From Hydrolagus colliei (lineage: Eukaryota), in NCBI GenBank assembly GCA_035084275.1, contig CM068757.1, forward strand, positions 9,858,001-9,922,000: a stretch of 64,000 bases of DNA, read 5' to 3'. Below the pieces are notes generated by a model, which saw only the letters and a list, made by a program, of their open reading frames with translations, had not been told where the DNA came from and searched no databases. Below are positions 1 to 57,885 of the stretch, piece by piece. The position numbers and the translations under genes are program-made. The stretch's first letter is position 1. Every line of letters starts with the position of its first letter.

Positions 1-306
1 AAATAAATAAGTGCTTCAGTAATAATTATTAATAATAATAATCCTTGCATTTGATGCAACCTTTGCTTAATTTCTTATTGAAGCACATTACCTGCATTTT
101 TGTAGTGCTTTCTCCAGCTCTGTTATGGGATGTCAACCTGGACTGTGGCTTGAACCAACTATCATCCTTTCTTGGAGGACTAAGCCAGGCTGACACATAA
201 CATCTTGTTAAAGCTCAGAACAGTTTTATTCCTTCTCATTAATTGTGTCATCATGCAGTTGCTGTCAGCGAAACTTACATTGAGCATTGCTTCTGTTTCC
301 TCGCAG

Positions 307-33927: not shown

Positions 33928-34251
33928 CTAGGGTGAGAAATATTGAAACGCTCAAACTGGAAGCAGTGGTTTCCCAATAATAATTATAATACTCCTTGCA
34001 TTTGATATAGCTCCTTATCACACCTTCAAGACATCTCAAAAAGCTTAATCAAAAGTGAATGGACTGCATATTTTTGTAAGAGATATGTTGCAGCCAATTG
34101 CACACAATAATGTCTCCCAAACAGTCATGGATTGAGTGACCAATTTATTATTTTATTTTGAAGGAATTAATCCTGTAAAAGTAATTTCTCAATCGACTAA
34201 CAAGCAGGTTCCTATTTACTGCCAGGTAAACAGAAGCATGTGGAGTAAGGG

Positions 34252-34410
34252 ACAAAAACAGAAGTTGCTGGGGAAACTCAGCAGGTCAGGCAGCATCCAT
34301 GGAGAAAGGAAAAAGAGTCTCCATGGATGCTGCCTGACCTGCTGAGTTTCCCCAGCAACTTCTGTTTTTGTTTCAGATTCCCAGCATCTGTAGTATTTTG
34401 TGTTTTGTTT
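34252..34410 (+). mobile_element. Palindromic short element, copy 1, nested in a SINE
   Basis: Perfect 54-bp inverted repeat plus tail. TSD atgtggag(t/c)aaggg at 34238-34251 and 34411-34424. Confidence 0.85.
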
Positions 34411-35122
34411 ATGTGGAGCAAGGGAATGTGCCCAATGTTTTGCACTGCTGGGAATCAAACCCAGATCTCTCGCTTGCGAGGCAAGTGCTCTAACCACTGA
34501 GGTACAGGATTCCACAATAATATCTTGGGAGATTGAAAGTCCACCTGCTCTTAAATTCTAGCATTTAAGATCATTCTGGCCAATAGAGAATTCTTAAAAT
34601 CCATGTGAAGGTTGAAGCCCATTTCACGCATTTAGAACCTGCTTGAGAATTAAGACCGAGTTTAAGAAATGTCTCCAATTTTGTGTAATACAGTACTTAA
34701 ATTTTAAATCAAAAAGGTCTTACGGGTCAAGATTCGATGGATTATTAGGCCTGTAGTTTTAAAACCAATGAGACTGAGAATCGCATGAGTAAGAGCTATT
34801 TATTGTTGGTGAATTCTCAGTTGTGTTTCCTAATCATGTTATTACAATCTGGCAGAGTGCTGAGCTTTGCAGTGTCCCACCAATTTAATTTAACTTTAAT
34901 ATGCTAGTGAATCCACTTCTCATGATCAGGGGAAACCAGAGCTCCAACAGCATCAGCAATAACCAGCATGCAAAACCAACTGCTGGATGCTTTGGTTAGA
35001 GGTTGACTCAACTCAATGTCACTGGCTCTTTAATAACCTTAAAAAGATAAGGAACCCTGTGGCAGTTTTCACCATGCTTCCCCACTCCCAGCCATTAAGT
35101 CACAGCTAAACCAATCGTTCAC

Positions 35123-35370
35123 CTGGACATTGGAACAGTTTGCTCTCTCGGCCTCGATCTTCAGCTGAATGGCGTCAGATGTCCACTTTGCCAGCCAGTA
35201 GTCAATGGCCACCATGACTGTGTGCTTGAACAGCTGGGAGAGGATGAGGAGAGGCAGCAGAAGGCAGCCCGCTGCACTCAGGTACTTGCCACAGGCTCTC
35301 CAAGGCAACTTGGTTCGCTGCCGCAAAACCGATGAAAGGTTGTCTTCATCATCACTCTCCAAAATGTCCT
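35123..35370 (-). CDS. ABCC8: SUR1 exon 25: [12 protein letters not shown]...RANCSNVQ
   Basis: 248 nt, AG/GTGAAC; keeps the NCS glycosylation sequon. Confidence 0.95.
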
Positions 35371-35845
35371 CTGCAGAAAACACAGACACCCAAAGACTCA
35401 TTTGTGCACCCACCCACACACACAAGCACAAAACAATCCTTCAGAACTGCAGCCTTCTCTTACACTGTCTTTGTGTTATTCCCATTATCTTCTACCCAAG
35501 ACTGCACCATCTATACCATGCCTTCTCTTGGTGAGTCACTGATATTCGTTTTCCAAGTTAGCACAGAATAAATCAGGATTTAGAGACCAACAGGGAAAGA
35601 ATCAGGGTGGAAGCTAGCTGCTGAAACCATCTAACTGAAGGGAGCAGATGTGGACCGCCAATCGACTAATAACCAGGTTCCTACTTACTTCCAGACAAAC
35701 AGACAGGTGTAAAGTAAGGACATTTTCCTAAGATTTTGCCCTGCCCTGGACTCAAACCCAGAACTTCTAGTGTGTGAGGCGAGTCCTCGAACCAATTTGC
35801 TACAGGAGTTTTTATGAATATTGTTTAAACATAAAATATTTTTAC

Positions 35846-35951
35846 CTTCATCCTCATCTTCCTGCTGTACTTTGAGGAGCGCCTCCCGGGAGTACATCGC
35901 TCTCCGCAGGTTCTTCCGTTCCAATGCAGTCTTGCTTTCAGCCACTGTCTC
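35846..35951 (-). CDS. ABCC8: SUR1 exon 24: ETVAESKTALERKNLRRAMYSRE...EDEDE
   Basis: 106 nt, AG/GTAAAA. Confidence 0.93.
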
Positions 35952-36379
35952 CTGCAGAATATGAGGCGAACTTTATCTTTCTTGCACATGGGTTGATGTC
36001 GTGGGGCAAAATTCAGAAGATGCCATTGAGAGTCATAAGAGCCTATCAGTCTCTCACCCTACCCCCACCCCCACCCCCAAATGATTAAATTGCAGTTTTA
36101 AATGGTCAGATTCTTCAAGAGCATCAAGACACATTAAGGTGGAATTTCTCTGATACATAATAGAAACAGTAAACAGCAAAAATGTGGATACAGTTTATCA
36201 CATCTTTTCACAAGTTACTTGGCCATTTGTCATCTTATATAAACATTCTTCACCCAAGTTTCTCTCATGTGCTGAGCTCCCTGTCACTAATCATACCCAT
36301 TTGATAATTAATTTCTGACCAATTTTATAAACCATGTGTGATATCAGACCAATCTCTGTGATTGCGAAGCCTTAAGAAC

Positions 36380-36505
36380 CTTTTCCAGTTGTTGATCCTG
36401 GCGGTTCATTAGGGTTTTCCAGTGCTCGAAGAGTTCTGGATCGGAATTCTGAATGTCCTTGAGGGTACCCTCTCGTTGAATGGTCCCATCCTTCATTGCA
36501 ATGAT
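36380..36505 (-). CDS. ABCC8: SUR1 exon 23: [13 protein letters not shown]...QQLEK
   Basis: 126 nt; weak donor AAG/GTTCTT. Confidence 0.9.
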
Positions 36506-36943
36506 CTGTGAGGAATAGATCATCACAGTGTTAGCATCGATTGGGCTACTAAAATGCAGTGGATGGGGTAAACACACTGGAGAATTAATATACAAAACAA
36601 AGTATCAAATTTACCAATTTACAGTATTGAACATTATTCAGATTTCATGTTAACATTTCATGTTTGCTTCAATATTACCAGTTAGGTTGGGTTTTTCAAG
36701 CAAGAAAAAAGATTTCAGAGTGGACTTTAAGATGGTACTTTCAGTTAGTCTGAAAATTCCATTTAGCCGTAGGCGATTCAGCCACTATTGGGATCTCTAT
36801 TTCCCCATGCCCCCAATAGCCTGTTCTACCAATTTTGTAGATCATGTTAGATCTAAGGGATAGCTTTTCCACGCTTGGATTTGCTATAAACAACTCCTCA
36901 TTGCAAAACCAGAAGCAAGCAACAACGGCTGGAGATGCCTCAC

Positions 36944-37081
36944 CCAGTCAGCATGGGGCAGGTACTGTAACTTGTGGGTGACCAGCACCACAGTCCGCTT
37001 CTCCTCCCGCAGCAATTTGAGGATTCCATCCTGCATCAGGTGGTCGCTCAGATGGACATCCAGGGCTGAGAATGGATCATC
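36944..37081 (-). CDS. ABCC8: SUR1 exon 22: DDPFSALD...HADW
   Basis: 138 nt, AG/GTGAGG. Confidence 0.95.
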
Positions 37082-38233
37082 CTAAAAACATCAACAACAT
37101 CACTTCACATTTATCATCCGGTCAGCAAGTGGAAACCTTTTTGGTCAAACAGGTACATACAAATCCCATCACAAGAATCCAGGCCAGCCTGAAAGTTCCA
37201 CATGAGTACTGTACTCCATCTGCACGTGAAAATATCCCTGTGACTGTGAATGAAATGCGCCATCTCTAATTTGAGGGATGCACCCAGCTAGCCTGATTCT
37301 GGAGAGTATTAGGTACAGCTTGGTGAGATCTTGAGATATCAGAGCTTGAGTTGGGGTACTGTTGGACTTTAAGCTATTAATACCACATAGCTTGCCATTG
37401 AGAGCATTGTCTGGCAAGATTCCTGCTACTTATCCCCCTTGGACCTTTAAGACTTAGGCTGATAGGGTTAACAGGAGCTACTCCCTCCTGGCCACATTGA
37501 CTGTTCTGTCATCAATAATGCGCTGGAGTATTGTGAACCTGCCTGGCGCAGGAACTGGGCTCCAATAATCATTGCAAAGGGTTGACTATTCTAAGATTCT
37601 GTTGCAAAGCAAATCAACTTGGAGCCAGCTCAGTTCTGAGGAGACCCTGCTTAGCTCCCCCCACCACCCCAAGGAGGATAGGATATGGAATGAATGTCAT
37701 TCTCATCAAAACAGAACAAAACTCTATCTCTTTTGAATTTAAGTCCCGTAGCACAGTGATTAGAGCACTCGCCTTACAATTGAGAGACCCAGGTTCCATT
37801 CCAGGCAGTGGGAAATGTTAGGCAAGTATCCTTACTTCACAAGCCTAATAGTACTCCCTCAAAAAAAACAATAATAATTTGGTTACTCAGTCCACGAGTG
37901 TTTGTGTAACACTGCTGTGTGTAATTGGCTGCGGCATTTCACCCACAAATATAGTAAATTCATTTTACAGTATATTCTGTTTAGTGCTTTGAGACATCTG
38001 GAAGATGTGATAAGGTGCTATATAAAATTTAAGGATTATTATTATTATTATCATCATCATCAATATTGGCTTGGACCAGGTGAAATTTCAGGTCTGTGCA
38101 GCAAAATTTGACAGGAAATTTATGCTTGGATTCAGAAATCTTTTGATGCATCAATCTTGTACAATATTTTCTGAGAGGAAATGAAAACAAATGTAAAGAG
38201 AAACCCCACTGAGTACAGATGGTCTGTACCTAC

Positions 38234-38314
38234 CAGAAATACCACATTTGTCTGCGGGTACAACGATCTCGCCACACTGATGCGTTGGCGCTGCCCACCG
38301 CTCAGATTGATGCC
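38234..38314 (-). CDS. ABCC8: SUR1 exon 21: NBD1 signature LSGGQ ... VVFL
   Basis: 81 nt, AG/GTAGGT. Confidence 0.95.
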
Positions 38315-39004
38315 CTGGGGAGGGTCAGATGAACAAAGTCAGAGAAACAAGGCAACCTCAACCAGAGCAAAGAGCTCTACAGCTCAAAGCTTATTGATTA
38401 CTCCCATCGTGTTTTCACTCAGTGTGCAGCTGTTGCCAGCAAAGATAATCAAATACTTCTCAGGGTATCTGTGTTCAAGTCAAACAAGCTTTTGAAGTTC
38501 AATCTTGTCTGAATCAATGGTGAGCTGATGATTGCAGTCATGAATGCAATTTTGGCGCTTGATATTTAGAATGATTGTTGAAAAAAGAATGATTGTTGAT
38601 GCATTGAACAGGGTAAGGAAGGATAAAGGAGGAGGATTCCTCATAATCAAGGTCCTGGCTGCCTATTCAGGTGGATGTTAAATAACACCCATGGCATTAA
38701 TTCTACAAAAAGAGAAGGGAGTTTCACCCAGTGACCTGGGCAACAATCTCCCAGATAGAACTGGTGAATCGATCACTTCATGGCTGCTTGTGGGACATTG
38801 CTGTGTGTAAATTGGTTGTCCCCTTCATCTACAAATAAACAGCACATACAACATAAATTGTCCCATTTTCACTGTGATGGCTCTCTGTACAAGCTATCTG
38901 CTTAGCATAAAAGGGGAAAAGCAAGGGTTACAATATATGATTCCTTTCTAACCCTAAATTCTCATTGAATGGTCAGAAGGGCCCAAATTGAAAATTCCAC
39001 TGAC

Positions 39005-39089
39005 CCTCTCTCCAATCAGGGTCTGATCTCCCTGAGGAAGGATGTCGATGTCTGGCTCCAGTGAACAAGCATCAATAACGGTCTTGTAC
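39005..39089 (-). CDS. ABCC8: SUR1 exon 20: [13 protein letters not shown]...IGER
   Basis: 85 nt, AG/GTCAGT. Confidence 0.95.
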
Positions 39090-41128
39090 CTGCGGAGAGA
39101 AGAGCAGGGTCAACTAGGGTCACTGTCAATGCTACACACCACTACATTAACTGCCAATTGATTCAGAGTTAGTTAAACAGAAACTGGAACGTAAGGCAAA
39201 AATCCTGCTTGGCTTTAACCAACACACAGATGGGATCCTAGAGACATGCCGTATGTTGTCTCTTCTATTGCTTTGCTAATGGGGGTAATGAGCCAAACTT
39301 GATTTCCACAAATTTGCACATTTTAGCAAACTAGCGTTTAACCCAGTTGAAATGGCCAAACAGTATCACAAGACATGGTTTTATTTATGGTTTTGTTCTA
39401 AAGATAAGAGCTGACACATAATGCTGATTGATTGCACTGCTTTGTGCCTGACAATAGTGGAGTGCTTTCAGAATCACAAGGTGGACAAAATAAAGAGCTC
39501 CTTTACACTACCTGCAACCGGGCTCAATCCCACTCTATACCTGCTCAGTCAATGGAACACACCAATTATACAGATGACTCTGAGGATTAATAACAGAATC
39601 AGCTCTGGCACAGTTGCATTCTGAGGCCATGCAATTCTTTGAGAAAGACCTTTATCAGGACCAATCCATCTAGAGCTCGCAAGTAGCAGTAGTTTTATTT
39701 TTATTCCAAAAATATTAATAATTTTGTCACTCAATCCATGACCAATTGTGGGACACTGCTGTGCACGATTGGCTGCTGTGTTTCACCCACAAATTATACA
39801 GCCAATTCACTTCACTATATATTCTGTGAAGTGTTTTGAGGCACCGCAACGATGAGGTAAAGTGCAACCTCAAATGCAAGCATTATTATTATATCGATAT
39901 CCAGAATCGCTCAGTCCACATACACTAAGTGGGTCTACAATCAGCTTCAACACTCAGCAGTGGAGCATCAGACCTGACCTTGGTGCACCTGACTGCAAAG
40001 CACCAGATTGTGCAAAGGTACGCTCCTCCACCTCCTCCCTGTACACTTCTCTGGGGGAAATAGATCACTTACTGTATGATGCACAGCAGGCAAAACCCAA
40101 AACACCATCTGCTGTGCTCAGAGCCTCCTGATTAAAGCATTGCCATTTCATCCTAAGAAGATTGCTCTGCAAACCATTAAACTGCTGAAAATATTGACAG
40201 AGAGCCTCAAACACTATGGTGCTACTGGGCTACCTGTACTCTGGGCCATTTATACAATGCACACAATGCTCAGTGCATCTATATGGTGTAAATTAGACTT
40301 TTATGCTTGGATTCATTCTGCAAATGACATAATAAAGTGAATGTGTTGATAACTCAGGAAAAACCAATAAATAGTAGGTGATGCAAGGGAAATATGTTAA
40401 ACTCTGTCCTCAGTATCAGACAAAGTCCTTTTGTTTCTTTACTTCGAAGATCCCATCACACTTTTCGTAGAATTGCGTAAACTAATATGGCCAAGGAACA
40501 GGGCATTTTGCCAAACTAGTCCATAACAGTCTCCAAATGAGCCTTTCCATTCCCCATCCTATTCAAAAAGAAAAGGGAGTCTCTCCTAGTTCTCTGGCCA
40601 ACAATTCCACAGATAAATTATCATTAAATACGGCTGAAGGATAGTCAAACCTTGTTAGCTGTTACTCTTGCCCCTTTTGCTTAGATCAGGGTGATCCAAT
40701 AGGCAGTCTGCGGGTTAAATTCATCGGCTCCCTCCTCCCACGCCAATTCACCTTGTCCACATACCCACTCCATAAACCGTAAAAGTTAGGTTTCTGGAAG
40801 GGACACCTACCAATGTTTCCCAAATAGGGCATCCTGCCCTCAGCAGCCAAAAGGTTGGATCACCTTGGGTTAGACCAAAGCTCCCAGAACCCAATGTCTG
40901 TTTCAGTTGCCAGCTGCATTATTCGGTGCTTTGTGAAGCTGAAGAGTACTACCAGTGTGGGACACCCATCATCTCTTAAAAGCAGCGAGTTTGAACTTGC
41001 TCTATCGCACCCCATATTCTGGTGGAACCCAGTGAGCCAGGCTGAAACCTGATATACATCAGATACACATACAACTGTTCATCCACACCTACCCCACCCC
41101 ACTCACATTTTGTATGGCTCACACTTAC

Positions 41129-41227
41129 CTTTGTTTGTTAAAAGGGTTTCCAAAAGTAATGTTCTCTTCTACTGTCGTATTCATTAGCCAGGGCTTCTGT
41201 GCAGCATAGGCTACTGAGCACTTCCTT
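41129..41227 (-). CDS. ABCC8: SUR1 exon 19: [13 protein letters not shown]...FNKQ
   Basis: 99 nt, AG/GTAAGT. Confidence 0.95.
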
Positions 41228-41881
41228 CTGAGAGATAGCAAAAAATAGATTTTTTTTAAACAAAAGTCTTGCTATTTGAGCCAAAGTGCTATGATTGTTA
41301 TTGTGAACCAGTCATCTCAAGGTATCAAAACTCTGGCTCTCACTCATTCCATACCAGGGTCTGAAGGCATTGGAGTTCTTTTAATCCCATTTCGCTGCAT
41401 TTTCCTCATCTCTCTTGAATAGCCCTACTTTCCAAGTACATTTCTGCCTTATGGCCAACTGGAGTCTGTATTCCATATGCTCACAATCCTCTGCATGAAG
41501 AAGTGTTTTCAAATTGGCCATCAAACTTGATATCAGTGGTAATTTTCACATCTCTGCGCTTCCCCCAGACTTCCACAGTAAAAATGATTAAATCAATACC
41601 GACCATTTTGAGTTACAATTATTCGATGCACAAAGAATGAGCTTGGGAGGGTGGCAATCGCACAAAAGCACATATACAACGTACACCAGGAGCAGTGATG
41701 TAATGCAGAAATATCAGCAATAAGATGGGAGAGAGGGAGTAGGTGGAATGACACTGAAAGCTAGCACAGCCTGGGAAGCACGCTGAGAGAAAATATTGTT
41801 TACTATCTGCAATCACCAAACACCACTAGGGAGGAACTGGGGAAAAAATAATGCTTGCCCTTTGAGTGGGAAAAGGTATAC

Positions 41882-41914
41882 CTCACATCAACAGCTGTGT
41901 CCTGCTCGGTATTG
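41882..41914 (-). CDS. ABCC8: SUR1 microexon 18: (S)NTEQDTAVDV(R)
   Basis: 33 nt, phase 2-2, polypyrimidine tract plus ttgcAG, donor GTATAC; resembles human PERETATDLDIR. Confidence 0.75.
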
Positions 41915-42000
41915 CTGCAATATGTTAAACAGAGAGAGGATAAGGTATTAAACAGCCCTAGCCAAGCAACGATTACTGCAGTCAAACTCTCTTAAAAGTA

Positions 42001-42218
42001 GAAATCGCTGGGAACACTCAGCAGGTCAGGCAGCACCTATGGAGAAAGGAAAATGAGTCAATGTTTCAAGTCCAGGATACTTAGTTAGAACAGGTCATGG
42101 ACCCGAAACGTTGACTAATTTTTCCTTTCTCTATAGATGTTGCCTGACCTGCTGAGTGTTCCCAGCGATTTCTGTTTTGTGTTTCAGATTTCCAGCATCT
42201 GCAGCATTGTGCATTTCC
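42001..42218 (+). mobile_element. Palindromic short element, copy 2 (longest)
   Basis: About 74-bp imperfect arms (42000-42073 and 42099-42173). TSD ctcttaaaagta at 41989-42000 and 42219-42230. Confidence 0.85.
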
Positions 42219-42937
42219 CTCTTAAAAGTAATAAGTGTTAAAGACCAATGTGCTTCAAGGTATCGATGTCAGGTGCAGCAGTGAAGTGTCATTGAAATGT
42301 TGTATCCAAACAGTTATCCTTTTCAGATACAAGCTGACCTACAGCATATTTTCAGTCCGTCAGACCTTATATCCTCAGCATCTAGGCCTTTCCCTTCACT
42401 TCTATAGAACCGCAGAACTTACAGGCAGAATAAGTCCATTTGGCCCACTGTGTCCACCCTGACTTTAAAAAACGCAATCAATTCAGTCTCATTGACCTTC
42501 TCCCACCTATACCACTATAAATTATTCCTTTTAATCTATTTACCTAGTTCCCTCTTTGGCCCTCAAAGCAGTCAACCACTTTACAGTATATCCTGTGAAA
42601 CCTTTGAGACGATGTTTTGATGTGAAAGATGCAAGATTAAATCCAAGATTTATCCAAGTTATTAAAACAAATTCCAGCTTGTTGTTCATAATATCTTGAA
42701 TCAAAATTATTTCCAAAGACTTTCTCTGCCTGAATTTACAAGGATTCAGACACAAAAGTTCAGCTCATTATAACTCACACTGGCATTGTAAAACACGTAA
42801 TCGCTGTATTCAGGGAAGAGATATTGGTTAAACTTTAAAAAAAAATGCAAAGCCTTTAACACAGCCATGTAAGTGCTCGTGTAAAACTAAAGGAAACCAA
42901 ATAGGCATAGCATAATAAACCAGACTAGACCCTATAC

Positions 42938-42973
42938 CTGCCATCGTTGTCCGCAGTCTCTCTGTCAGGAATG
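42938..42973 (-). CDS. ABCC8: SUR1 microexon 17: (S)IPDRETADNDG(S)
   Basis: 36 nt, phase 2-2, tttctgcAG and GTATAG; start resembles human SLPDSE. Confidence 0.8.
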
Positions 42974-43511
42974 CTGCAGAAACACAAATGAGTCTAAGTC
43001 AGAGAATGCAACATTAAGGTCTTAGAAGTGGAATTGGGGTTTTTATACATATAGTGTGATAGTGAGATGATAGCAAGAGTTCTAAGATTGATAACATGCT
43101 GGGATTGTTATATTTGTTGTTCAGCCAGGACTCTGATACATGCAGAAACCCAGCACTGAGTTAGTCTCACACCCAGACAGATGTGTATGTCACTACATAT
43201 CAAAATTATTGTGCGGCTGGAATGGCTTGTGCACTCTCTCCTTGAGAACTGCAGATCTACCAAGCTCAGGAACTGAACTACACTGGTTCCAACTCAACTC
43301 CATAGAGAATTTGGCCATGCCCACCACACATGCCCAAGGAGGACAGTCACTGGGTGGGGTTACAGTAATCATGTCATTAGTATATTGAAAGAAAGAGTGA
43401 ATAGTGAACACTTTGTGATCTAGGAAGCAATGAGTGAGGTTTTTCATTACTGTATCTACAACTAAAATTGACTGAATTGCATGCCTATATATTATTCTGC
43501 AGGATAGATAC

Positions 43512-43617
43512 CTGTTCCAGCAGACATTTCCGGATTTTTTTTGCATTTCACCAAGAGTTGCCAAGAGGAGGGAGGATTTGCCACATCCAACCTGGCCGAC
43601 TATCATGGTCAACTGTC
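43512..43617 (-). CDS. ABCC8: SUR1 exon 16: NBD1 Walker A GQVGCGKS
   Basis: 106 nt, AG/GTATCT. Confidence 0.95.
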
Positions 43618-43959
43618 CTAGAGAAGGAACATACATTTCAGGTTCACATTAACTGTGTGCACACCATCACTTCACCATTCAGATCTGAACCACAGGTCTC
43701 TGTGGAGGGAAATTCTACCTGGATCTAGTTCATCTACAAATACACAATACCTATATTTGATAGTAATTCCTGTGAAGCACTTTAATATGTTTCAATTATG
43801 TGATAAGGCATTATATATCAAATGCAAGGATTATTGTATTATTACTGTATTACAGTATTACCCATTTATTTAGCATTTCAGTGCATCTAGGTTTTAGCAA
43901 ATTATAGAAAGAACTCACAGAAAACGGGCATTACAAACGGGAGTTGTTCGCTGACCTAC

Positions 43960-44035
43960 CTTGAGGGATCTTGATGTCAATGTTCGACAGAGTGGGTGCC
44001 CCATCAGTTGTCCAGGTAAAATACCCACTGGTCAC
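43960..44035 (-). CDS. ABCC8: SUR1 exon 15: [25 protein letters not shown]
   Basis: 76 nt, AG/GTAGGT. Confidence 0.95.
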
Positions 44036-44704
44036 CTGTATTTGTATGGTAAGTTATTAGGTAAAATGCATTTCAGAGATCTTGTTTTCCCAGAAGTTTC
44101 CCAGCCACACTGCTTCCTACACACCAAAGAACCTTTCCTTAACAATGAAGCGTTTACTTTGGTATTCTGCATTCGGCCTCTTTAAATACACATTGTCCTT
44201 TCACTGAGCAAAACATTGAGAGCAAAACTGGGTAGACATTAGTTTTGTCTGATGCATTTAAAGCAGGTATCACGGGTAGAAATGTCTAACACCAAGAAAA
44301 GTTCATCACTTCCTGCAAGGCAATTTATTCATCCCCCTCATGTAAAACAGAATGCAGACTTTACATGTTGTGCTTTCTTAAATTCACAAGCACATTCGAT
44401 TTTTAAGTGGTCATCAGATGCTTTGCAGCTACTCTGATGCCATAAGTCTAATTGTGTCTAGCAAAGTGAGCCATTATCACTGATTACAGTCTAACGACCA
44501 ATTTTGCTAGGGATCAAGCAGAGAGTAAGAGTCAATAATCAGCTTCACTCTGGCTTAGTTGGTAGCACTTGTGCGTCTACATCAGAAGGTTGTAGAATCA
44601 AGCCCCACATTGGGGATTTTCAGCTCATAATCTAAAACAGTGCTGAAAGTGCCATCCTATGAATGAGATGTATTCAAACTGAGGACTCCATGCTAAGATC
44701 CCAC

Positions 44705-45343
44705 AATACTCAATTTAACCACCCCGGTTCCCGGACCGTGGCCACTGATTTGGCGGGTCCCAAACAACATTTTCATGGTCCTAACGTGACCACTCTGGCC
44801 AATCAGGCTGCGGCATGACGTCACCGAGACAAGATGGCAGCGCGGATTTGAAGAGGTCACGTGAGCGGCCGCTTTGTTAGTAAAAAAGAGAAGCTGCAGG
44901 TAACGGAACTTGAGTTCCGGCCTCGAGTATTCCCACTCACCAGCTGCGAGACATCTCCTCCGAGTATCCCCCTCCCCCCCGGTCTTGAGTATCCCCACTC
45001 CCCGGTCTCAAGTATACTCCCTCCCTCGCCGGCCTCATGTATTTCCCCCTCCCCCGAGACTCCCCGGCCTCGAGTAATTGGAATTGAAAGGATTAGCTGA
45101 GGATAAGATCGGCCATGATTTAGTTAAATGACAGAATGGCCTATTCCTGTTGCTATTGGTATTCTTTCTCCCCACCCCCCAGCCTCACGTACCCCCCTCC
45201 CCGGCCTCTCCGACTTGCATGGACGGTAGCCAATAGTTTAATCTTCCATCCAGCAGAATCAACACCTCACTTACGTGACCACCCCACCAATGCGACCACC
45301 TGGTCGTGGTCCCGTGGGTGGTCGTGTTACCGAGGTTCTACTG
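44705..45343. mobile_element. Probable pogo/Tigger-like non-autonomous element carrying a CpG-rich cassette
   Basis: Right end reads TA-CAGTAGAACCTCGGTAACACGACCACC on the minus strand (TA at 45344-45345). Left terminus only degenerate. Confidence 0.45.
44795..44905 (+). promoter_or_regulatory. Promoter-like motif cluster (CCAAT, CRE, YY1, E-box)
   Basis: CCAAT 44799-44803, TGACGTCA 44816-44823, CAAGATGGC 44830-44838, GTCACGTGA 44856-44864, CAG/GTAAC at 44900. Confidence 0.5.
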
Positions 45344-46130: not shown

Positions 46131-46241
46131 CTTGATACAAACATCATCTCCTTCTGTGCTGAGTATTTGTTGCCTGGGCTGAGATTCGTAATTTTGCCAT
46201 TCCTCTCTGGTGGGCCGTTTGCGGTTAATAACTTTAAGGGG
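46131..46241 (-). CDS. ABCC8: SUR1 exon 14: PLKVINRKRP...DVCIK (RKR motif at 46215-46223)
   Basis: 111 nt, AG/GTGAAA. Confidence 0.93.
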
Positions 46242-46509
46242 CTGTGCAGGAGTGAGTGGAAAACGGAAGGGTAAGAAGTCATTGCAAGAGAAGTGCAAAT
46301 TAAACATACACACACACATCAAAGCTTCAGTTCTACATTACACATTCCTTACAGAGTGTGCTTTGCAGTATCGATGCTATTAATATTGGAAATTACTGTG
46401 ATTGAATTTCAGCTACTGGGAGACTATTCTACAACAGACTGGGAAGATTCTGGAAATGACAAAGACAGCTGGGACATGCAGCATGCCTGATTCGCTGCTC
46501 TGTACTCAC

Positions 46510-46615
46510 TATGGCTTGGTACATGCTGTTGCTTTCAACGTTGAGTTGCACAGTGGCTCGGTCGTGGTCTTCTCCAATCTCTTCACTGGAAAAGAATTCG
46601 CTGAGCTTCTGCACG
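46510..46615 (-). CDS. ABCC8: SUR1 exon 13: VQKLSEFFSSEEI...MYQAI
   Basis: 106 nt, AG/GTGAGT. Confidence 0.95.
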
Positions 46616-48119
46616 CTGACGGGAAGACAGACAAGAGGGAATTAGTGCATTCCAGCACATTGGGAAGATTTTTTTTTTTTTAGAGGTTTCCTACTGTTTA
46701 AAATGTTTTGCCAGCATTAACTGACAAGTGTAGCGTCTGGTTTTGTGGGCAAACACAGATAGACAGATGTTTGTACAACCAGGTCCCATAAATCGCCGAA
46801 TGATCATAGATCCGTTTGATCAACTTATCAGGAAACCAGGCGAAACCCTCCCCTTTTCAAATGTTACGTTAATACCCAGGCAAGAGGGGAATGGGTTTAA
46901 AGCCTTCACTGAAAAATGGCAACTCAAACAATGTAGAGCTCCCCCAGCACTGCACCAGAATGCAAGTTGAAAGTCTCAATATCGAATAACCTCAGGCACA
47001 TACTTTTATTATAAACAACCAAATCAATGTTAATTATTTTTCTGTAAATCAACAGTTGTATGCTGAATTTCAATTAATCTCATTTCATATTAAGGACTTG
47101 AGCAGTACAATCCTATGTGAATTCCCATTGTTCAGTGTTTCATTAAGCAGACTTGCTGTTGTGCAATTAAAGTGATGAGCGGAGCATGGGTGGAAGAACA
47201 TCCATTTTATATATTAATCCTTGTATTTTATAGTGTTTTTCACGTCAGGAGAGCTTCACAGGATTTATTATAAAGTGTGGTGACTATATATTTTGTAAGC
47301 AAAATATCAACCAGAAGGGTAGAGAAGCAAATGGTTTATTACGTATCATCTATTTCTGAAAGCAATAATCTTTCAGAAATAGTTTTGTAACAATATTCAT
47401 ATCTATACCAGGAATGTTGTTTGAGGCCAGGACATTGGACTAGTTAAAAAATAAAAGCCTGATGCTGAGATGGGAGAATGGGTGTTTGAGAAGGATTAGC
47501 CAGATTAGCCAAAGAGTCTTCTTCTGCAAAATCTCTCCTGTGTATGTAACTGAAGGAGAGTGGTATAAAAGGCTGCTGCTATCAGATGTGCATGTGAATG
47601 CAGCAAGGAGTTATAAATGCACAGAAATAACCAACTGTGGACAGACCAAAGGCACTGGCTGCATACAATTACAGTGGAAGTCTTATAACTACTGTTCCTT
47701 AGTGGAACATCAACCAGGTGGAAAACTGGGTCGCCGTCCGAGGTCGCCTTTAGTGGCTCATGTACTGCTCAAAATATTGGACTAAAGCTAAGCTGCATCT
47801 TGAAAAGGGGTCAAAAGTGAAAATGAGAGGTCAGTCAGGGGTAAAACGGGAGTCAAAGCCATCAATAATATCCAAAAATGTATAATTTCTCCAAATGTTC
47901 AATATTTCACCCAAAAGTGTTTAGTCAATTCGTCTTATACAGTATATTCTGTGAAGCACTTTGAGACATCTTGAAGACGTGATAAGGCGCTATATCAAAT
48001 GCAAGGATTATTATAATTATTGATAGTGGTGGACTCCCATAGAGACTGCTCAGCCTCACCTCGCTTGTGTAGAAAGATGTGTTGCAGTATATAATGAAAC
48101 TGATCAAGCAATGTATTAC

Positions 48120-48265
48120 CTGACGACGGCCTTGACGGTGGAGCGCACCACACTGGACAGCAGGAAGAGAGGTGTGATGAGGATGTGGAAGAGAGAGAGG
48201 GAGGCAAAGGCCACAGCTGGTGAGAGGTCAGCGTCCTCATGCACGTGGGTGTGAACTACGAACGT
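48120..48265 (-). CDS. ABCC8: SUR1 exon 12: TFVVHTHV...STVKAVV
   Basis: 146 nt, AG/GTAATA. Confidence 0.95.
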
Positions 48266-49134
48266 CTTTGGGAGAAATCAAAAACATCTGCAATCAGTTC
48301 TTCGTAAAGGGAACACATCTGTATTCATTTTAGAAACCTACAGCAGTGGAAATTCACAGTACATTAGGAGAGCCCACCACTGCGCTCTGAAAGAATTATC
48401 CATTTATTATAATAATCCTTGCATTTGAGAAGCACCTTGCATGTTAGAAGGATGTCACAAACGCTTCACAGAATATTACTGTAACGTGTGGTATAGTAAC
48501 TGGTTTAGCATCCACACCTCCTCCCTCCTCACATTCAAAGCCTGCTTCAAGACAAACCTCTAACTGCATTTTTGGCCAGTTTCCCTCCTCATCCTTTTTA
48601 AGTCCACCCCGGGCTCCCTCCTTACTACCCCCCCGCGCCCCCCCCCCCCCCCCCCCCCCTCCAAGGCTTGGGTGCTTAGCCAACAGTGTAAAGCACTTTG
48701 AGATGCCCTCTTGGCGTAAAAGGCAAGTAGATATAGCATATGTAGGCAAACGCTGCAGCCAATTTGTGCATGGCAATGTCGTAAAAGAAATGAATTGGCA
48801 ATCTATGCATTCTTTTAAGAGTGAATCAAATAAATAATAATCGCTGCATTTGATTATGGCACCTTTCATTTCAACAGAACATCTTAAAGCGCATGATTTC
48901 CTGTAGTAGAGCAGTGATTGTGTATTTGTAATGCTCAATAAAGTAGATTATTAAACTAAGGGGAACCAGTGGTATGGGATTAGTACATTAAAAATGATTA
49001 ATTTCTTCAATAAGATTTTGCTTCGGATCTTACTCAGGTCTTTGTCTCCAGGGGGGAACAGACCTAAGGCAGTTGCTGCCATTAGCAAAGAGGCAACCAG
49101 TTGTGCTAAGGAATAAGAAACACTGGCTACTTAC

Positions 49135-49175
49135 TGTAAGGACTGCCGCAATGGGTATTGCTGCATTCATGAAAA
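49135..49175 (-). CDS. ABCC8: SUR1 exon 11: FMNAAIPIAAVLT
   Basis: 41 nt, AG/GTAAGT. Confidence 0.95.
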
Positions 49176-50586
49176 CTGCAAATAAAAGGAGAAATTCATG
49201 AATGAAGTGGAACCAGCCCAATCCTATCTGATCTAGAAAATATTGTTTGACAAAAGATTAGACAATAGTTTATTCTGACTGTGTGGCTTCAATGTTATGA
49301 GTGCAGATTTATCACTGGTTCCATGGAAGGTCTTGAGCTTATTCAAGTGTCTAATTTCCATTATGTGTTGTGTGTAGTTGATGAATTTAAGCAATGTAGT
49401 ATATAAGAAGATTAATAGTTTAATAGTTTGTGTTTTATGTAGTGGAAATTTTATGTAATATGTACATAATAAATGTATAAAATACATGTAAGAGCAAATA
49501 ATTCCTGATAATCTGCTGCTTTAAAACACACTGGAAATGCTACATTATGATAGTGAAGTTAGTTCAGTTGCTATGTAACTATCAGATTTACTGTCCCCAT
49601 TATCTTTATTACAGTACAGTACAACACAAGCCTCGCAAAACAAAGAATAAAATAAAACCACAGATGAAATTTTACAACACTTAATAAACAGCTGGCTGTA
49701 CATTAAAGCAATGCAGCTCTAGTCTTCAGAGACTACAATAGGGACCTAACTTCTGTTCCATTGGAGACACTACCCCACTTGAAGGGTGCAATATAAATGC
49801 AAGTTGTTGTTCATGGATCTTTTAACACACTTTCAGCAACTTGCCTCTCCTATATCAGTGGTAGGGTTCCTCAAAGAACTTTCAGACTGAAATGTTGCTG
49901 GGAAGAAATGACAAGGAGTAAAAAATGAAGGGGCGAAACCCTAACCGAGAGTTGACCTGGGCTGACAACATGTTTTGTTTTCCTGGTGTCTTACTAGTTT
50001 TACTACTTTATTTACTAGTGTCATACAACCAGGTTATATTACTCAAGTCACCTAACAGATGAGATTACAATGATCATGACGTGTTGGGTCTCCAGACTGG
50101 ATCTCATCCAGTAACCCACGTGGATTGAGGACATCTTATTTTTGGAGCATGAGCAATTGGGAAGTGGGTGCAAGAAATTAATGGAAAATGGGGATAGGAT
50201 GTAGAGTGAGCTGAGAAATAGTGAATTTAGAAATTTTAGGTTCTATAACTTGTGGTTTCCTCCTGGATCTTGGTTTCTTTCCATTGGTTTCCAGTCTGTT
50301 GGGAGAAGTGGGTGAGGCAACAAACACAAAAACAATTATGTATTGATGTAGAACCTTTCACACAGTGGGACATCTCAAAATTCATTACAAAATTGAGAGG
50401 GAGTGCAGGTTTGGGGGTGGTGGGGGGAGGGTAAAGAGAAAGAGAGGGAGCTCAGAAAACACAACATTTTAGAAAATTTGCTAAGAGACCATGAACCAAC
50501 TCGCTTTAATCCTGAAGAGAGGAAATACACTAAGTGACTAATGTCTTCAAGCTGAATGCCAGTTTGTGGCATTCAGAAAATGTTAC

Positions 50587-50749
50587 TTGATATGGAGGTG
50601 TAGAGAGCGAAGGACTTGAGGCTAGTCAGCTCCTTGCGCCGTGTCTCCTCTACACTGCTGTGGAAGATGTGCTCCCAGGCATATAGCTTGAGGACTTTGA
50701 TCCCACGCAGCATCTCGTTGGTTTTCCTTAGTCGCTCACTTGAATATTC
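50587..50749 (-). CDS. ABCC8: SUR1 exon 10: [18 protein letters not shown]...YTSIS
   Basis: 163 nt, AG/GTAACA. Confidence 0.95.
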
Positions 50750-51379
50750 CTGTGGGAGTGAGAAAAAAGAGCAACCAGTCTGAAGACAGGCTAAGGTATC
50801 TCAGGACCATCTCACCTCGCAGTCAGCCACTCCATATTGGAACACATACACAAATACTTCAACTCCAGCAAGTTCCTTATGCTGGTTAGATTTTCTGGTC
50901 CTTGCAAAACCAAACTACACAGCACTTGGTTTCTTCTTTCCAGAATTGTAACAAAGTACGCAGGGTATTATTTCTATCTTGATGACTTGGTCAAGGTGCA
51001 ACTTGGAATAAATCTAGAGAAAACCTCCTTCAGCTCTGCTTGAATGTGCTTGAACATGACAGCAGAAGAGAGCATTGTGGTTGGAGTACCACATGTTTTG
51101 TGCTACAAAGGAATGTTGGATCAATATAAGGGATGGACATAGCAGAGGCTATATTACTATGGACAGATGGAAGGATTGGCAGGCGAACTCGCTCAAGTGG
51201 CTCAGGTGGTCACTGAAAAAGTGTAGCATAAGGTGATGGTTAACTGTAGAGCTTCCCTCATCTTGGGAATGTGGCTTGGGGTAAATAATAAAGGATGAAA
51301 AAATGTAAATCTAGTAAACAGGATTTTCTGGCAAAAAGCACAAAAATTGGAGATCAATATCAATTTAAGAGGTACTTAC

Positions 51380-51514
51380 CAATGTGCTTCTTTGGGCCTG
51401 AGAAAGCTTAGTTGCTACAAAATATTGAACTGGGGCCAGTACTGCAATCACTGTTGCTCCAATTAAGGCACTAATTCCAAGGAGGTAGTACAGAAGGATC
51501 ACACCCACGATGAT
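51380..51514 (-). CDS. ABCC8: SUR1 exon 9: [10 protein letters not shown]...AQRSTL
   Basis: 135 nt, AG/GTAAGT. Confidence 0.95.
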
Positions 51515-54500
51515 CTGGTACAACAGAGAATGACAATTCATACTGGATCCACTGTGTCCCATTAAACATAGAATTTGTAGAATTTTGCAATACTGCTATC
51601 TCGATAGGTTATAAACCTTTCATAACCTGCTGAGATAAAACTATGGTTTGTTTTTTCATCTGCCAGGTCTGAGACATGCGGAAACCCAGAATTCGATACA
51701 TCCCACCTATCCCATGGAAATCCCTGAGTAGATCTTTGGAATGGAATGCACACTCTCCCATATGGCCCCCACATGGGCTTGCTACCTGGGAAGCAGAAGT
51801 AATCAAACAAGCTAGAAAAATAATTAAAATCATGGACGTTAATGGTTTGGCCCCAGAACCTGCCTGTGTTGAAAACAACAAAAAAATTACATTTACAGAG
51901 TGCCTTTCATATCGTGAGGCTGTCCCAAGGAGGTGAAAAAGCACAGACTTTTAAAAAAGTGATTGAAAACTTCAGAAATAGTTTGTGTCTTGGGTTGTGG
52001 AATCTGAGAGACGGAGAAAGGAGGGGAGTGGCAAGCTGCAAAGGAGAATCTTTCCATTGCAAAGTTGACACTGTGTAATTGTGATATGTACCATGTATAG
52101 TTGACCTGCGTATTGGCCCATGTTATACTTTATGCTTGAATCTGATCAATCCAATTTAAATAATTCAAAAAAAGATGCCTGGTGGGTACGATATGACCTC
52201 TTAGTTGATAAGCTGATTGATATAATTGTTCTTTGCCAGGCCCACTTCCCCTTCACAGTTGGTAAGGAGGGAGATGGGGTACAGCCTTGATTCCTGCTCC
52301 TGATTGCAATGCAGTGACCTCTGCTGGAAAGAGTGTATGTATACATCAGGCAAGAACAGGAGCCCCCCCAAATAATAAGGCGCTACATCAAATTCAAGCT
52401 TTATTTTATATATACTATACAGTACTACTGATTTACAAAAAACTCCAAGTTTAAAAACTTTTTCATAATTGAATGCTGCAATCCAGATTAAATGTATGAA
52501 AAATGGTCCAAACAACAACAATATAATGACACCTATAGAGTACGTTTTGCGTTGGGAGGACCTCCCAAATCATCATTGTTATTATAAAAGTTATGATGTT
52601 GAATAGTCCTGAGCTGAGTCCTGCCTCAGAGGGTTGAGTGTTCAAGACTTGCATTGACTGCATGCCTTACAAGTGTGGGAAAAGGGCAGATAAATGGAAC
52701 TGAAAGGATTGCTCTTAAAAGAGCCAGCACAGACACAAAGCTGAATGGCCTTCTTCATTTATGTAAATTGCTATGGTTCTATGTTTCTAGGTCAGGCATT
52801 TCAAGTAAAGACATTTCCTTAACCTCTCGGTTTCCACTTTGGGGCAATTATCTTAAAATTGTGTACAATTATGGGAATATATGTCACAGAGGTTTATTGA
52901 GTGTCTTCCTCACACGCATTTATAATACTGCTGAACAACTTACAGTTGTATTAGCACCAATTATGTAAATTGAACATCTAGAAGCAGTTAAATGTCATAT
53001 GGGAGTTAAATATGATATGGTACTCCGAGCAGGGAAAGTTAATCAACTAACAGCTTGCTTTAAAGGACATGTTTTATGGAGAGTTGTGAAAGCATAGAGA
53101 GGGGAATAATAGAAGAGAATTCCAGATGGCAGTGGTGTGGTGACTGAAGGTTTGACTGGTGGAGGCAATTAGCCATGGCTAATTGGCAAAAAACAGTTCA
53201 ATGGGGAGATTACTGCTCAATCTCTCTTGTACATCAGTTCCTGATCCAGAATAATTCTATTGTCACCTACCAATACACAGTTACTACACTTTATTGTAAA
53301 GAGCTTTAGGAATCAAGAGTGCCAGACTGCCATGGGATCTTTGTTGGCAATTCTCTGCCCATAAACAGCATTAATACCAAATGAAATTAGTATTATTATT
53401 ATTATTTATCACAACAGCCAATACACATTCATCCAATAGGAGGGCAGTGGGTCGAGAGAAATGAACTGAGGCTGCCAGAGTTAATTGTCATCCAGAATGT
53501 TAACTACTAGCTGGAGTAGATTCTGTTGCCTGAGGCACACTTGAATGGTTTGCTGTCAGAGCTGTGAAGAGATTTTACAATAATGCCATGTACTGCCTTG
53601 CTTCAGTCCAACACAGAAAATGATCAGCATTAAATGATCATCAAAATGTTCTTTCAGTAATTACAACCCAGCATGAAAGATTCCTCTAGTCAAACTTTCC
53701 TCTTCTAGTGTGATAGCTGTCCCCTCGCTAACCCTCGAATCACTTCCTGGCAAGTCTTTCCTTTGTGACTTCTTTATTGTAGTCATTGTTCCTTTGGATT
53801 CTTCCTCCTCATCGCCACATACTCTGTTTTGTACAATGTATTTAAGAGAAAGCATGATGCATATATGCGGAAGTAAGGAATAGAAAAGGTATGGTGGAGG
53901 GGATTAGGCTAAAGTGGAATATGAACATGCCTAGTGGTCCCAATGATCTGTTTCTCTAGTGCAACTCTAGGTCTGTGTAAGATTGCTTCTAACTGTGCTG
54001 AAATTAATATTCAATACATTGGCTCCTGCTTTCCCAGGACCTTCAGACCCTGGAGCTCATATCACTATTTTCTTTTCCTTCCACATTCTGCAACCATTTT
54101 GTGCTCATATGAGAGGCTGGGCAGTGAAGGTTGACCATCCATTTGGGGTCCCAGACAAGCTTGATTCTGTCCTCACCAACAGCACAAACAAATGCATCTG
54201 AGACAGTTATTAGGAACAGGACACCTAGTTCAATGTCCCACAAACAGCCATGAAGGGAAGACCAGTCTATTTTTTTAAATAAAGCTGTTGGGTTAAGATT
54301 CACTGGGAGATAATAATAACACTGATTCAGTGGGAGATACTGTATGAAATCTGTACTACTGATACTAATAGGGTTAAATGACTTTGTCCCACAAACTCCA
54401 TCTCTGAATCAGAGTACAGTATATCAGCAGGAAATAATCAATAACTAGGTGCATTGAAAGATAAATGGAGACAAGGCAATACCTTGCGGTCCGTCACTGT

Positions 54501-56456
54501 TATTATTCTTCCACAACAGGAAGTTATTGTGCAAGATTGCAGGTCGGTGCCAAGTTCCCATACATGTGTGATCCATGACAGATACTAAGCTGCTTTGTCA
54601 TTGTTGCCAAAATGGAACATCTGTCACATTCAAGTGATGAATAGTAGGGGCTTCACGCCCAGAGAACTGAAAGTCACTTAATATCATCATAATTTTCACT
54701 ATTAAAATTCCACACAAACCATTACAAAGATTCTTGATTGGAGCCAAGAAAATAAAGAGACGCCGAAACAGACACAATAACAATAGAAATAACCCTTGAA
54801 TTGCGTCTCACAGAATATATTGTAAAATGGATTGACTATATTTTGTGGACAAAATACAACAGGCATTTGCACACAGCAGCATGTCACAAACAGTCATGGA
54901 TTGAGTAACCAATTGTATTTAATTTGAAGGGATTATTATGCTCGGAAAGCGATACCTCAATCGAGTAACAACCATGTTTCTGCTTACTGTTAGGTTATCA
55001 GAGACATATGGAGTAAAGAGACTTGCCTAAGGTAACAGCCTTGCTCAGTTGGTAACACACTCCAAAGAATATTGGTTCAAGCTCAACATTCCTTGAATGC
55101 AAACCATTTCATCTTTAACATACAAATGATAATTAATTCTTAAATTTCAGCTGGTGCGTGCATATCAGTTCTGTGGCAATAGCGGTTTAAAAGTTAATAC
55201 CTCTTCTCAGTGTTATTCAACTAACTCCCCTTTGCCTGCTCTCAATCACTTTCAAGTACATAAGATATGCTGTTTGTCAATGATAAGAGTGGCTTTCACA
55301 AACAATTCTTTTCAAATATTTCAATTCTTTTGAAATAAATTGCCCAACATGTTTATTTCATACCAGTGCCTGTTCTGCTTCTGAGCTTCACTCAATCACA
55401 GAGTGATTACATCTCTCTCGCACAAAACACACACTCACCCATATACTGCTGCTCAGATGTTCAAAACAAGCTGTAGATGGGGATAATGAAATGCTATTAA
55501 AGGGCCCTACGATAACATTAGTAGGATACAGACAAGACAGATACAATCCTGTAGAGTATTTATCTCATAATTGAGAGGACCTGGGTTCAATTCCCGGGCA
55601 GAATGAAACATTAGACAAGTTTCCTTACTCCACACTATTTATTTAGCAGTAAGTAGGAACCCATTTATTAGTTGATTGGCTGGTCACTTTTCCAGTGGTA
55701 ATAATCCCTCCCAAAAAAAAGGATTACTCAATCAATGACTTTGATTTTCACCCACTTTTCAGTGCAAGCTGTGAAGCGTTTTGACATATCACAAAAGTGC
55801 CAGCTAAACCCCAAACTGGCTGCCATGTATGCTTACAAACACAGTCGCTTCACTTTGCAGTAAATCCTGTGAAGAGCTTTGAGAGTTTGACAACATGATA
55901 AGGCACTATATCAAATGCAAAGATTATTATTATTACTTCAGCACTTACAGGATAAGTTCAGTAACCTGAGTTTTACACTTTTGTCATCTCTGCCTCTTAG
56001 CAATTTAAATGCTTTGTTCATGTCCTCCTTATTTGTCTTTTTCTATGAAAAAGGTTCAGTCCCTCACATCTCTTAGAACAATACGCAGAGGGAGAGGTTA
56101 CAGAGGACAAGGATATAATTAGTGGCTGAAGTTGATACATGACAGAATGAGTCAATAAAAAAAGGGGGAGGGATGGGGAGGGCGACAAAGAGACTGGGAC
56201 ACAAGATAATAATTTGTACACAGTAAGTGCATGTTCTGAGAATTTAATAATCATTGTTGCATTGCGCACAGAAATATAAATGTAGCTTAGTGAGATTCAC
56301 CAATACAGTCAAAGACTAGAAGTACTAAACATGTTATGATAATTCTGCCCATAAACGGTGGCATGAAGAATCAAATCAGTCCCTTGGGTGTCAAGGTTCT
56401 GTAGTCTACCTTACACTAAAAAAGCCATGTTGTAGGTAGAATGGGAGATATTATCT

Positions 56457-56616
56457 AAACAAAACACAAAATATTACAGATGCTGGGAATCTGAAACAAA
56501 AACAGAAGTTGCTGGGGAAACTCAGAAGGTTGTAGACCCGAAAGGTTGACTCATTTTCCTTTCTCCATGGATGCTGCCTGATCTGCTGAGTTTCCCCAGC
56601 AACTTCTGTTTTTGTG
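56457..56616 (-). mobile_element. Palindromic short element, copy 3 (opposite orientation)
   Basis: 30-bp arms. TSD tgggagatattatct at 56442-56456 and 56617-56631. Confidence 0.85.
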
Positions 56617-57885
56617 TGGGAGATATTATCTGTTGCCTCCAAATCAATGAAAACCCAGTGCCAGCCAAGTGATGCTCAATACAGCAATTTCAGAACTGAG
56701 GGCTGGACAGCTCCAATTCAGCTCCTAGGCTGGTTCAAAGCTACCATTCTGCTTAACAACAACAAAATTACACTTGTATAGTGCCTTTCACGTCAGGAGG
56801 ACGTCTCAATAATAAATGATAAAAAATAAATTAAAAATCATCCACGTTGATAACGTGCTTGATATAGCACATTATCAAGTTATTAAGATGTTTCAAAAGA
56901 CTTCACAGTTATAATGATAATTTCTGCATTTTGATATAGCACTTTTCACATCTTCTAGAGGTCTCAAAGAATACACTTTACCATATAGTCTGTGAAGCGC
57001 TTTGAGACGTCCGGTAGAGTGGAATATCAAATGCAAGGATTATTATTATACAATAAATCACTGTATTAATATACTGCCTTCCATGTCAAGAGGATGTCAC
57101 ATTGGGACTCGTGAGTGTGCAATCGAGGCTAACGCTGCATTACATTGCTGGTCCAGACTTTCAAAGCCCTCCATGGCTTTGCTTCCCACCTGCCTTGTGA
57201 CCTCCTAACTGCCTACCAACTTGCCTGCTTCCTCTACTCAGTGGGTTCCAGCTTGCTTCATGTTCCCCACCTCACCACCGCCAGCCTTCAGCCACCCTGC
57301 CTCTATAACTTCATCCTGCCTTGCTGCTTCTTTTGCCTCCTTCAAGACCCATTTCAAGATCCTCCTCTTCGACCGTGCCTTCAGTCACACTCTTTTTCCC
57401 CGCTTGCTCTCCACTCTCCCTGATCTCGACCTCCAGCTTAGTCTGAAACAGTGATTGTACAGTACCTTGGGACCTCCTCCCGACATTAAATCCACTATAC
57501 AAATGTAATTTTGTTGTTGGGGGTATGCATCTGCAATTACTGGAGGTGCCATCCTTTGGATGAGAGTTTAAACTGAAGTACCACTGAAGGTTGATGTGGA
57601 TATAAAGATTCTATGGCACTATTGGAAAGCACAAGAGAATTTATTTCCCAATGTCCTGACCAACAACCCGCAAGATAATACTGGTCATTCCCTTCATGGC
57701 TGTTTGTGGGTTACGGCTGTGTACAAATTAGCTGCTGCATTTGCCAACTGAAAAGAAAAATCCATCACTACAATAAATGCTGTGAAGTATTTGGAGACAG
57801 TCTCCTGATGTTAAAGGCAATCTGCCAAATGGAAGGATTATTCTGATATTCATGGGAGGGAGATTGGTTTTTATCAAACACTTAC

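Follow-up and report, generated by a model that had tools for sequence, protein, structure and literature searches.

Within a 64,000-nucleotide stretch of the genome of Hydrolagus colliei (the window; contig CM068757.1 of assembly GCA_035084275.1, positions 9,858,001 to 9,922,000), three short palindromes are found, which likely lie in introns of an ABC transporter gene. Each is made of two arms placed head to head between direct repeats of the target DNA, with the last 35 bases, the tail, confined to one of the arms. These palindromes are separate insertions of the short front end of an abundant Penelope-like element (PLE), whose hairpins arise afresh every time and do not belong to a family that spreads by itself. 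The original prediction had described three palindromes with target duplications of 12–15 bp and a one-sided tail, and all of this is present: the inverted repeats of the copies are in turn 54, 59 and 33 nt long, with identities of 100%, 92% and 97%. A chance origin of the palindromes and their duplications is excluded, because copy 2 folds with a z score of −17, which none of 200 shuffles equalled, and because the procedure that finds duplications returned one of at least 10 bp in only one of 227 mismatched pairs of flanks. A BLAST search with the three copies returned no fourth one, whether in the window or within 10 kb of either end.

Positions within the element are counted here from the first base of the hammerhead CUGA box, its C (+1), negative numbers being 5′ of that C. 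Copy 1 joins +30..97 to +44..134. Its tail-less inverted arm (34252..34319, minus strand; +30 to +97) is of subfamily A and 100% identical to the majority sequence, and its tailed arm (34318..34410, plus strand, with the alignment running to 34408; +44 to +134) ends in the tail at about 34372–34410 and has two joint bases in common with its partner. The duplications, 34238..34252 and 34411..34425 (plus strand), are 15 bp long with one mismatch, and the last base of the left one is common to the arm. Copy 2 joins −5..96 to +10..132. The tail-less inverted arm (41994..42094, minus strand; −5 to +96) is of subfamily B, extends to the common 5′ end and contains a whole but decayed hammerhead motif (about 42057–42092); the tailed arm (42093..42218, plus strand, aligned to 42216; +10 to +132) starts within hammerhead helix II and retains the GAAA and the cleavage triplet. 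Its left duplication (41989..42000, plus strand) is 12 bp and exact, or 14 bp with one mismatch, with final bases similar to the end of the element, and the right one lies at 42219..42230 (plus strand). Copy 3 joins +63..134 to +10..97. Here the tail is on the minus strand, in the shorter of the two arms (56457..56530, aligned over 56459–56530; +63 to +134; subfamily A), and the tail-less arm (56528..56616, plus strand; +10 to +97) contains hammerhead helix II and the GAAA, with three joint bases in common; the duplications, at 56442..56456 and 56617..56631 (plus strand), are 15 bp and exact. The lengths of 14, 12 and 15 bp proposed earlier thus hold for copies 2 and 3, while copy 1 has 15 bp with one mismatch. 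At all three copies two differently truncated arms meet over two to three common bases, which describes the centres better than the internal deletions first suggested, although a later central deletion may have occurred at any one of them.

The exons of the ABC transporter lie at 35069–35440 and 43193–43648 (both minus strand; ABC_tran E 3.6e-6 at 43 kb), beside an open reading frame (ORF) for an inward-rectifier potassium channel (IRK, E 7e-58; 11364–12500, minus strand), and we take this pair to resemble KCNJ11/ABCC8 or KCNJ8/ABCC9. The window also holds an immunoglobulin C1-set exon (E 9e-10; 243–620, plus strand), decayed fragments of a reverse transcriptase (RT) of the long interspersed nuclear element (LINE) type (RVT_1 E 1.5e-6; 2245–3433, plus strand), and a hairpin of 37 perfectly paired bp around a 4-nt loop (21533–21610), unrelated to the Penelope family, which adjoins a BED zinc-finger ORF fragment (E 3.8e-8; 21678–22136, minus strand), probably the remains of a hAT-type transposon in decay. 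The insertion of copy 1 seems to have gone into a very abundant tRNA-headed repeat resembling a short interspersed nuclear element (SINE; Rfam tRNA, 41 bits), which is seen at 34445–34507 (minus strand), at 37745–37813 (plus strand) and in many further inverted pairs.

The parent element emerges on walking upstream from longer copies of the arm, where a pyrimidine-rich pseudo-long terminal repeat (pLTR), an endonuclease (EN) domain of the GIY-YIG type, a C-X4-C-X2-C linker (in L096, L095 and other loci) and an RT with YIDD are met, the order in long copies being RT-linker-EN-pLTR-tail. Locus L096 contains both RVT_1 (E 4.4e-6) and GIY-YIG (E 0.002) and ends in a tailed arm 97.8% identical to that of copy 1; L042 has GIY-YIG (E 1.2e-5) upstream of the same end. 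In three long copies (L351, L352 and L353) the tail continues into the 5′ sequence of the same ORF, and in L353 a second end follows the ORF at +130; this is the partial-tandem layout of PLEs, and it places the fixed 3′ ends within the RNA. The suspected Penelope link, for which an ORF with RT and GIY-YIG and the same ends had been proposed as a check, is borne out. The nuclease has the CCHH arrangement, its cysteines standing between the blocks VVY and YIG and a pair of histidines following downstream, and the majority translation has a DKG motif ahead of the RT. The coding copies seen are broken over several frames; relatives of about 900 amino acids contain both RT and GIY-YIG, and the closest named proteins are uncharacterised ones of shark and ray (59–66%), which points to a cartilaginous fish as host. 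Assigned by the linker criterion alone, the element appears to be of the Neptune/Nematis rather than the Penelope/Poseidon type; a CX2-5CxxC linker is described as marking the former and absent from the latter in the available part of PMC8557442. A CR1/HER1 LINE tail, considered as the identity of the sequence, was dropped, since the upstream ORF encodes GIY-YIG and a PLE-type RT. Direct partial tandems, in which the tailed end is joined to the mid-ORF or pLTR of a second copy, occur at L042:540-1720 and L038:1101-1697, as would be expected from template jumping. Eight near-identical truncated Penelope copies with flanks in common, 22–35 kb apart (L331, L333-L338 and L343; G000:C38:4.15-4.33 Mb), are a tandem segmental duplication and not separate insertions.

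A first look at the genome (1.0 Gb) gave 3483 candidates for one arm, and exact 24-mers gave 1540 matches for subfamily A, to which copies 1 and 3 belong, against 756 for subfamily B, that of copy 2, the reversed controls giving 0. Forty evenly spaced 10-kb stretches (400 kb) held 11–12 matches, four of them two-armed, which corresponds to a density of about 14–49 per Mb (computed for 11 matches) and roughly 14,000–49,000 copies genome-wide. For counting, a genome-order sample was drawn from 90 of the 1540 A and 30 of the 756 B matches, all on contig C1 and chosen regardless of their 5′ side; it comprises 114 distinct elements, 60 two-armed and 54 single, and is biased towards young copies and to one contig. 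Seven of the 60 came through a looser rescue step and are left out of the tests on 53 copies; two of these seven (L226 and L279) are doubtful and are counted in the 60, with their partner arms dropped before the counts of 5′ ends (172 arms). The comparison of joints pooled genome-order copies with loci chosen by the queries, giving 118 joints. In the literature we found no account of this family, of the cap-derived G or of the one-tail statistics treated below, though Repbase/Dfam, subscription papers and supplements may hold the family.

If the palindrome were itself the mobile unit, its joint would recur from locus to locus. This is what the original prediction had supposed, namely a non-autonomous hairpin retroposon, transcribed and mobilised as a whole and differing between copies by internal deletions; the common outer ends, the thousands of copies and the greater truncation of two-armed centres relative to the 5′ ends of single copies are in keeping with it, as is the occurrence of two near-identical pairs of joints. 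Yet 114 of the 118 joints are unique, and the remaining four, which form those two pairs, come from query-chosen loci, while the joints of copies 1 and 3 do not recur among the 30 loci fetched for each. About half of the sampled copies are single-armed, with the same fixed ends as the two-armed ones, and the same head-to-head layout is found with arms as long as 1.1 kb, ORF sequence being part of them (L091, L095). Because the joints are nearly all unique, those of copies 1 and 3 have no recurrence among the loci fetched and the layout extends to arms of over 1 kb, each insertion forms its own hairpin, and a hairpin family of the kind first proposed is highly improbable. The joints themselves (n = 53) comprise 15 overlaps, 3 blunt junctions and 35 with inserts, as in end joining. 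At L214, L249 and L263 the inserts reach 42–61 bases, and those of L214 and L249 consist mostly of short repeats of nearby element sequence, which suggests repeated slippage during joining.

The time at which the arms were shortened is a separate matter. Failure to reach the common 5′ end is commoner among arms of two-armed copies than among single ones, so that trimming at insertion and later central deletion are indistinguishable on this count and some joints may be later deletions; to that extent the internal deletion first suggested stands. Taken to its extreme, every insert would have begun as a full palindrome, primed from both strands, and most joints would be deletions that followed cruciform breakage; perfect spacerless palindromes are unstable, and the excess of central truncation in two-armed copies agrees with such a course. 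However, near-full palindromes persist at equal divergence (for example L235, L243 and L251), and truncation downstream of −1 is likewise seen in 15 of 53 single copies. We regard this version as quite improbable, and it would in any case alter only the time of trimming and not the identity of the element.

The 3′ ends fall into two clusters, at about +95..104 for tail-less and +131..135 for tailed arms, and the two fixed ends, +97..102 and +131..135, are 35 nt apart. Among the 51 classifiable pairs of the genome-order sample, 48 combine a tailed with a tail-less arm and in no case do both arms have the tail, where free pairing of arms would give 25 mixed pairs (P 8e-12); nine further pairs have one unclear end, and the single copies comprise 23 tailed, 30 tail-less and one other. 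Both arms are of the same subfamily in all 53 copies. It could be argued that a first cDNA, or an antisense RNA as in the published model of antisense self-priming (PMC3846280, the relevant part), folds back and is copied into its mirror image, and the variants held in common by the arms of one copy (16% of variant sites in subfamily A, against 4% for arms of different copies), together with the overlapping bases at 15 of 53 joints, are consistent with this. Fold-back of a tailed cDNA, on the other hand, predicts that the tailed arm is always the longer. Of the 48 mixed pairs, 22 have a tailed arm that extends further 5′ than its partner, 20 have a tail-less arm that does so, and 6 have arms that are level, which excludes simple fold-back of the tailed cDNA. 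Moreover, both arms are at the common 5′ end in 9 of the 48, near the 6.7 expected for independent arms (hand count), 35 of the 53 joints carry inserts, and the extra G described below points to a capped sense RNA as template; self-priming is thus unlikely.

Duplications of at least 10 bp flank 37 of the 60 two-armed and 14 of the 54 single copies, against the control rate of mismatched flanks given above. Tabulated over the 114-element sample, where a genome-wide table had been recommended, their length has a mode of 14 bp and is mostly 11–17 bp, and the fixed short duplication with a DDE transposase partner that would have spoken for a DNA transposon was not seen. Beyond the duplication the flanks resemble each other on both sides, the third flanking base being A in 39 of 61 on the left and 32 of 61 on the right. 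A miniature inverted-repeat transposable element (MITE), or a cut-and-paste transposon with long terminal inverted repeats, would share with these inserts the extension of the inverted repeats to the insert ends. The ends are asymmetric, however, the duplications vary around 14 bp, truncation is 5′ and the sequence is continuous with an ORF for RT and GIY-YIG, so that the probability of this alternative is close to nil, and the earlier preference for retrotransposition over cut-and-paste stands.

At their 5′ ends, arms stop at a rate of 0.20 per base at −5..−2, compared with 0.007 at +3..+65 and 0.006 upstream (172 arms), and exact-pattern counts over the genome give 747 arms that begin at −3, 1052 at −2 and 1003 that extend to −8. 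In hand counts of the first 100 arms listed, the base preceding the start is G in 48 of 100 at −3 (26% expected, P 1.5e-6) and in 42 of 100 at −2 (29% expected, P 0.004). Sixteen single copies with the −3 start were examined for this base. In four that have a duplication (L368, L375, L378, L392) a G stands between the duplication and the element; two others with G have no duplication that we could find, and in six of the nine with A or T the base is explained by overlap with the duplication. The site of the pile-up fits the initiator consensus YYANWYY. Start sites of PLEs within the pLTR are reported for Drosophila virilis and Chlamydomonas in the part of PMC8557442 available. From the DNA we infer that the pile-up marks run-off of the cDNA at the capped start of the RNA, the extra G likely being a copy of the cap. 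A templated G variant at −4 was rejected as the source of the G, being present in just about 2% of the arms that cover −4. Ribozyme-cleaved RNA was rejected as template, since the predicted cut site shows no excess of 5′ ends (rate 0.005; 2 of 435 base-risks, against a background of 65 of 9000); for the same reason we take it as chance that the inverted arm of copy 1 begins exactly at the predicted cut (+30). Spliced RNA is not favoured either, as single copies abut the duplication with few extra bases and no common upstream exon; an acceptor-like CAG does follow a pyrimidine tract at −4..−2, and an intron of D. virilis is described as ending at helix I (PMC4209133, in part).

By its sequence and pairing, the pLTR has a minimal type I hammerhead motif with predicted self-cleavage. 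In long copies CUGAYGA and one extra A are accompanied by GAAA, by a CG palindrome and by a GUU triplet; helix II, closed by G-C, has 5 bp, and helix I has 4 bp. In 72 arms selected by the motif the helix I pairs hold in 65–71, and helix II differs between subfamilies by a U-G / C-G change. About 2800 arms genome-wide retain an intact core box together with an intact beginning of helix II. The prediction of a decayed ribozyme core is thus right as to the hammerhead remnant, but the family's motif is intact in thousands of other copies and is simply cut off or decayed in these three: as foreseen, no intact CUGANGA box is left in the window, truncation having removed it from five of the six arms and decay having altered it in the left arm of copy 2. 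Since its cut site lay within most templates, the ribozyme was probably just carried along in these stumps. A non-LTR retrozyme, made of head-to-tail units with whole hammerheads, was set aside for the window copies, which are head-to-head and without an intact core; tandem arrays in the genome were not searched for.

Each palindrome is thus a separate insertion of a PLE front end, and we consider it likely that both strands of a staggered cut primed cDNA on the element RNA. The nuclease would cut the two strands about 14 bp apart; one 3′-OH would then prime at the distal start site and yield the arm with the tail, while its counterpart would use the proximal site and yield the tail-less one. 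Each cDNA would extend towards the capped 5′ end of the RNA, 2–3 bases before the hammerhead core, or halt sooner, and the two free cDNA ends would be trimmed and end-joined head to head, with microhomology or short inserts, single-armed copies being events that keep just one cDNA. An anole PLE protein is reported to cut and extend both strands in vitro and to start at two sites that bound the tail (PMC11167929, in part), and double priming from two such sites would explain the layout. With rather less assurance, though still leaning towards it, we favour an asymmetric dimer that makes a 14-bp double cut in a two-sided target and starts two cDNAs 35 nt apart on capped, uncleaved sense RNA, and to the same degree the rule that one arm is always tailed and the other never.

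A number of observations weigh against this account. First of all, the arms fall short of the common 5′ end in 70 of 111 cases in two-armed copies and in 15 of 53 in single ones (P 5e-5), and a fine variant agrees between the arms in just 20 of 38 copies (7.8 expected), so that the two arms may come from one RNA or from two. Second, 3 of the 51 pairs are tail-less on both sides, and 23 of the 60 two-armed copies have no clear duplication. Third, the G before −3 at L385 belongs to the duplication, and single-cell polyA reads, of unconfirmed organism and from both strands, show no pile-ups of starts or ends, although a start signal is not expected in such reads. Fourth, the suggested search with Rfam models, run on the window and on an intact-motif copy, gave no hammerhead and just microRNA-hairpin matches far below threshold. 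Finally, we saw no ORF that is intact, and open frames in the 150 nuclease hits that were scored reached at most 360 amino acids, so that no active master copy is identified.

Priming from both strands has a precedent in L1 twin priming, where both nicked strands prime cDNA and a 5′ inversion arises inside the target duplication, and full-length L1 copies often bear a cap-derived G. L1, however, inverts without duplicating, whereas here both arms copy one stretch from starts 35 nt apart. Closer relatives are found among the PLEs, which are compared here from the available parts of each paper. The EN+ Neptune/Nematis elements (Craig et al. 2021, PMC8557442) likewise have a single ORF of RT, linker and C-terminal GIY-YIG with CCHH, a partial-tandem pLTR, heavy 5′ truncation, an inverted 5′-truncated copy and, at one end, a tail of 30–40 bp, while most inserts in our case are leader-only stumps of 100–250 bp, whose ends can be counted. 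Pen2a_Av/Pen2 of Adineta vaga (Arkhipova et al. 2013, PMC3846280) also has head-to-head pLTRs with one 31-bp tail and a target duplication, but its duplications are 8–10 bp, against the mode of 14 bp here, and its inversion was explained by antisense self-priming, which our counts do not favour. Poseidon PAc of Anolis (Frangieh et al. 2024, PMC11167929) is alike in its two internal RT starts bounding the tail, in RNA that continues into the ORF, in the cutting and extension of both strands, in its predicted dimer and in that hammerhead cleavage is dispensable for insertion in vitro; it belongs to the Penelope/Poseidon clade, without the linker zinc finger, whereas the element here has the linker, and in the available part of that account nothing is said of palindromic inserts, of 5′ ends or of how long duplications are. 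The minimal hammerheads described from metazoan PLEs (Cervera and De la Pena 2014, PMC4209133) correspond in the core boxes, the extra base after position 9, the G10.1-C11.1 pair, the short helix I and the palindromic 15.2-16.2, and are mostly single motifs, with some opposite-strand pairs 100–700 bp apart; the differences are that helix II has 5 bp here and that our motif is known from sequence.

The layout is thus already published, and the element is one more PLE family, ordinary as a sequence feature. In the parts of PMC8557442 and PMC3846280 available, the origin of PLE tails and inverted ends is called unresolved, and the value of the present data is mechanistic: the 14-bp stagger, the one tail per insert and the run-off at the cap are numbers that are testable in the existing in vitro system. 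For annotation, such palindromes and solo hammerheads are to be masked as PLE debris, rather than as MITEs, microRNA hairpins or a new SINE. If correct, the mechanism would take the place of antisense self-priming as the model for PLE inserts of the head-to-head kind, and most genomic ‘solo hammerheads’ would be by-products of initiation at the front pLTR copy.

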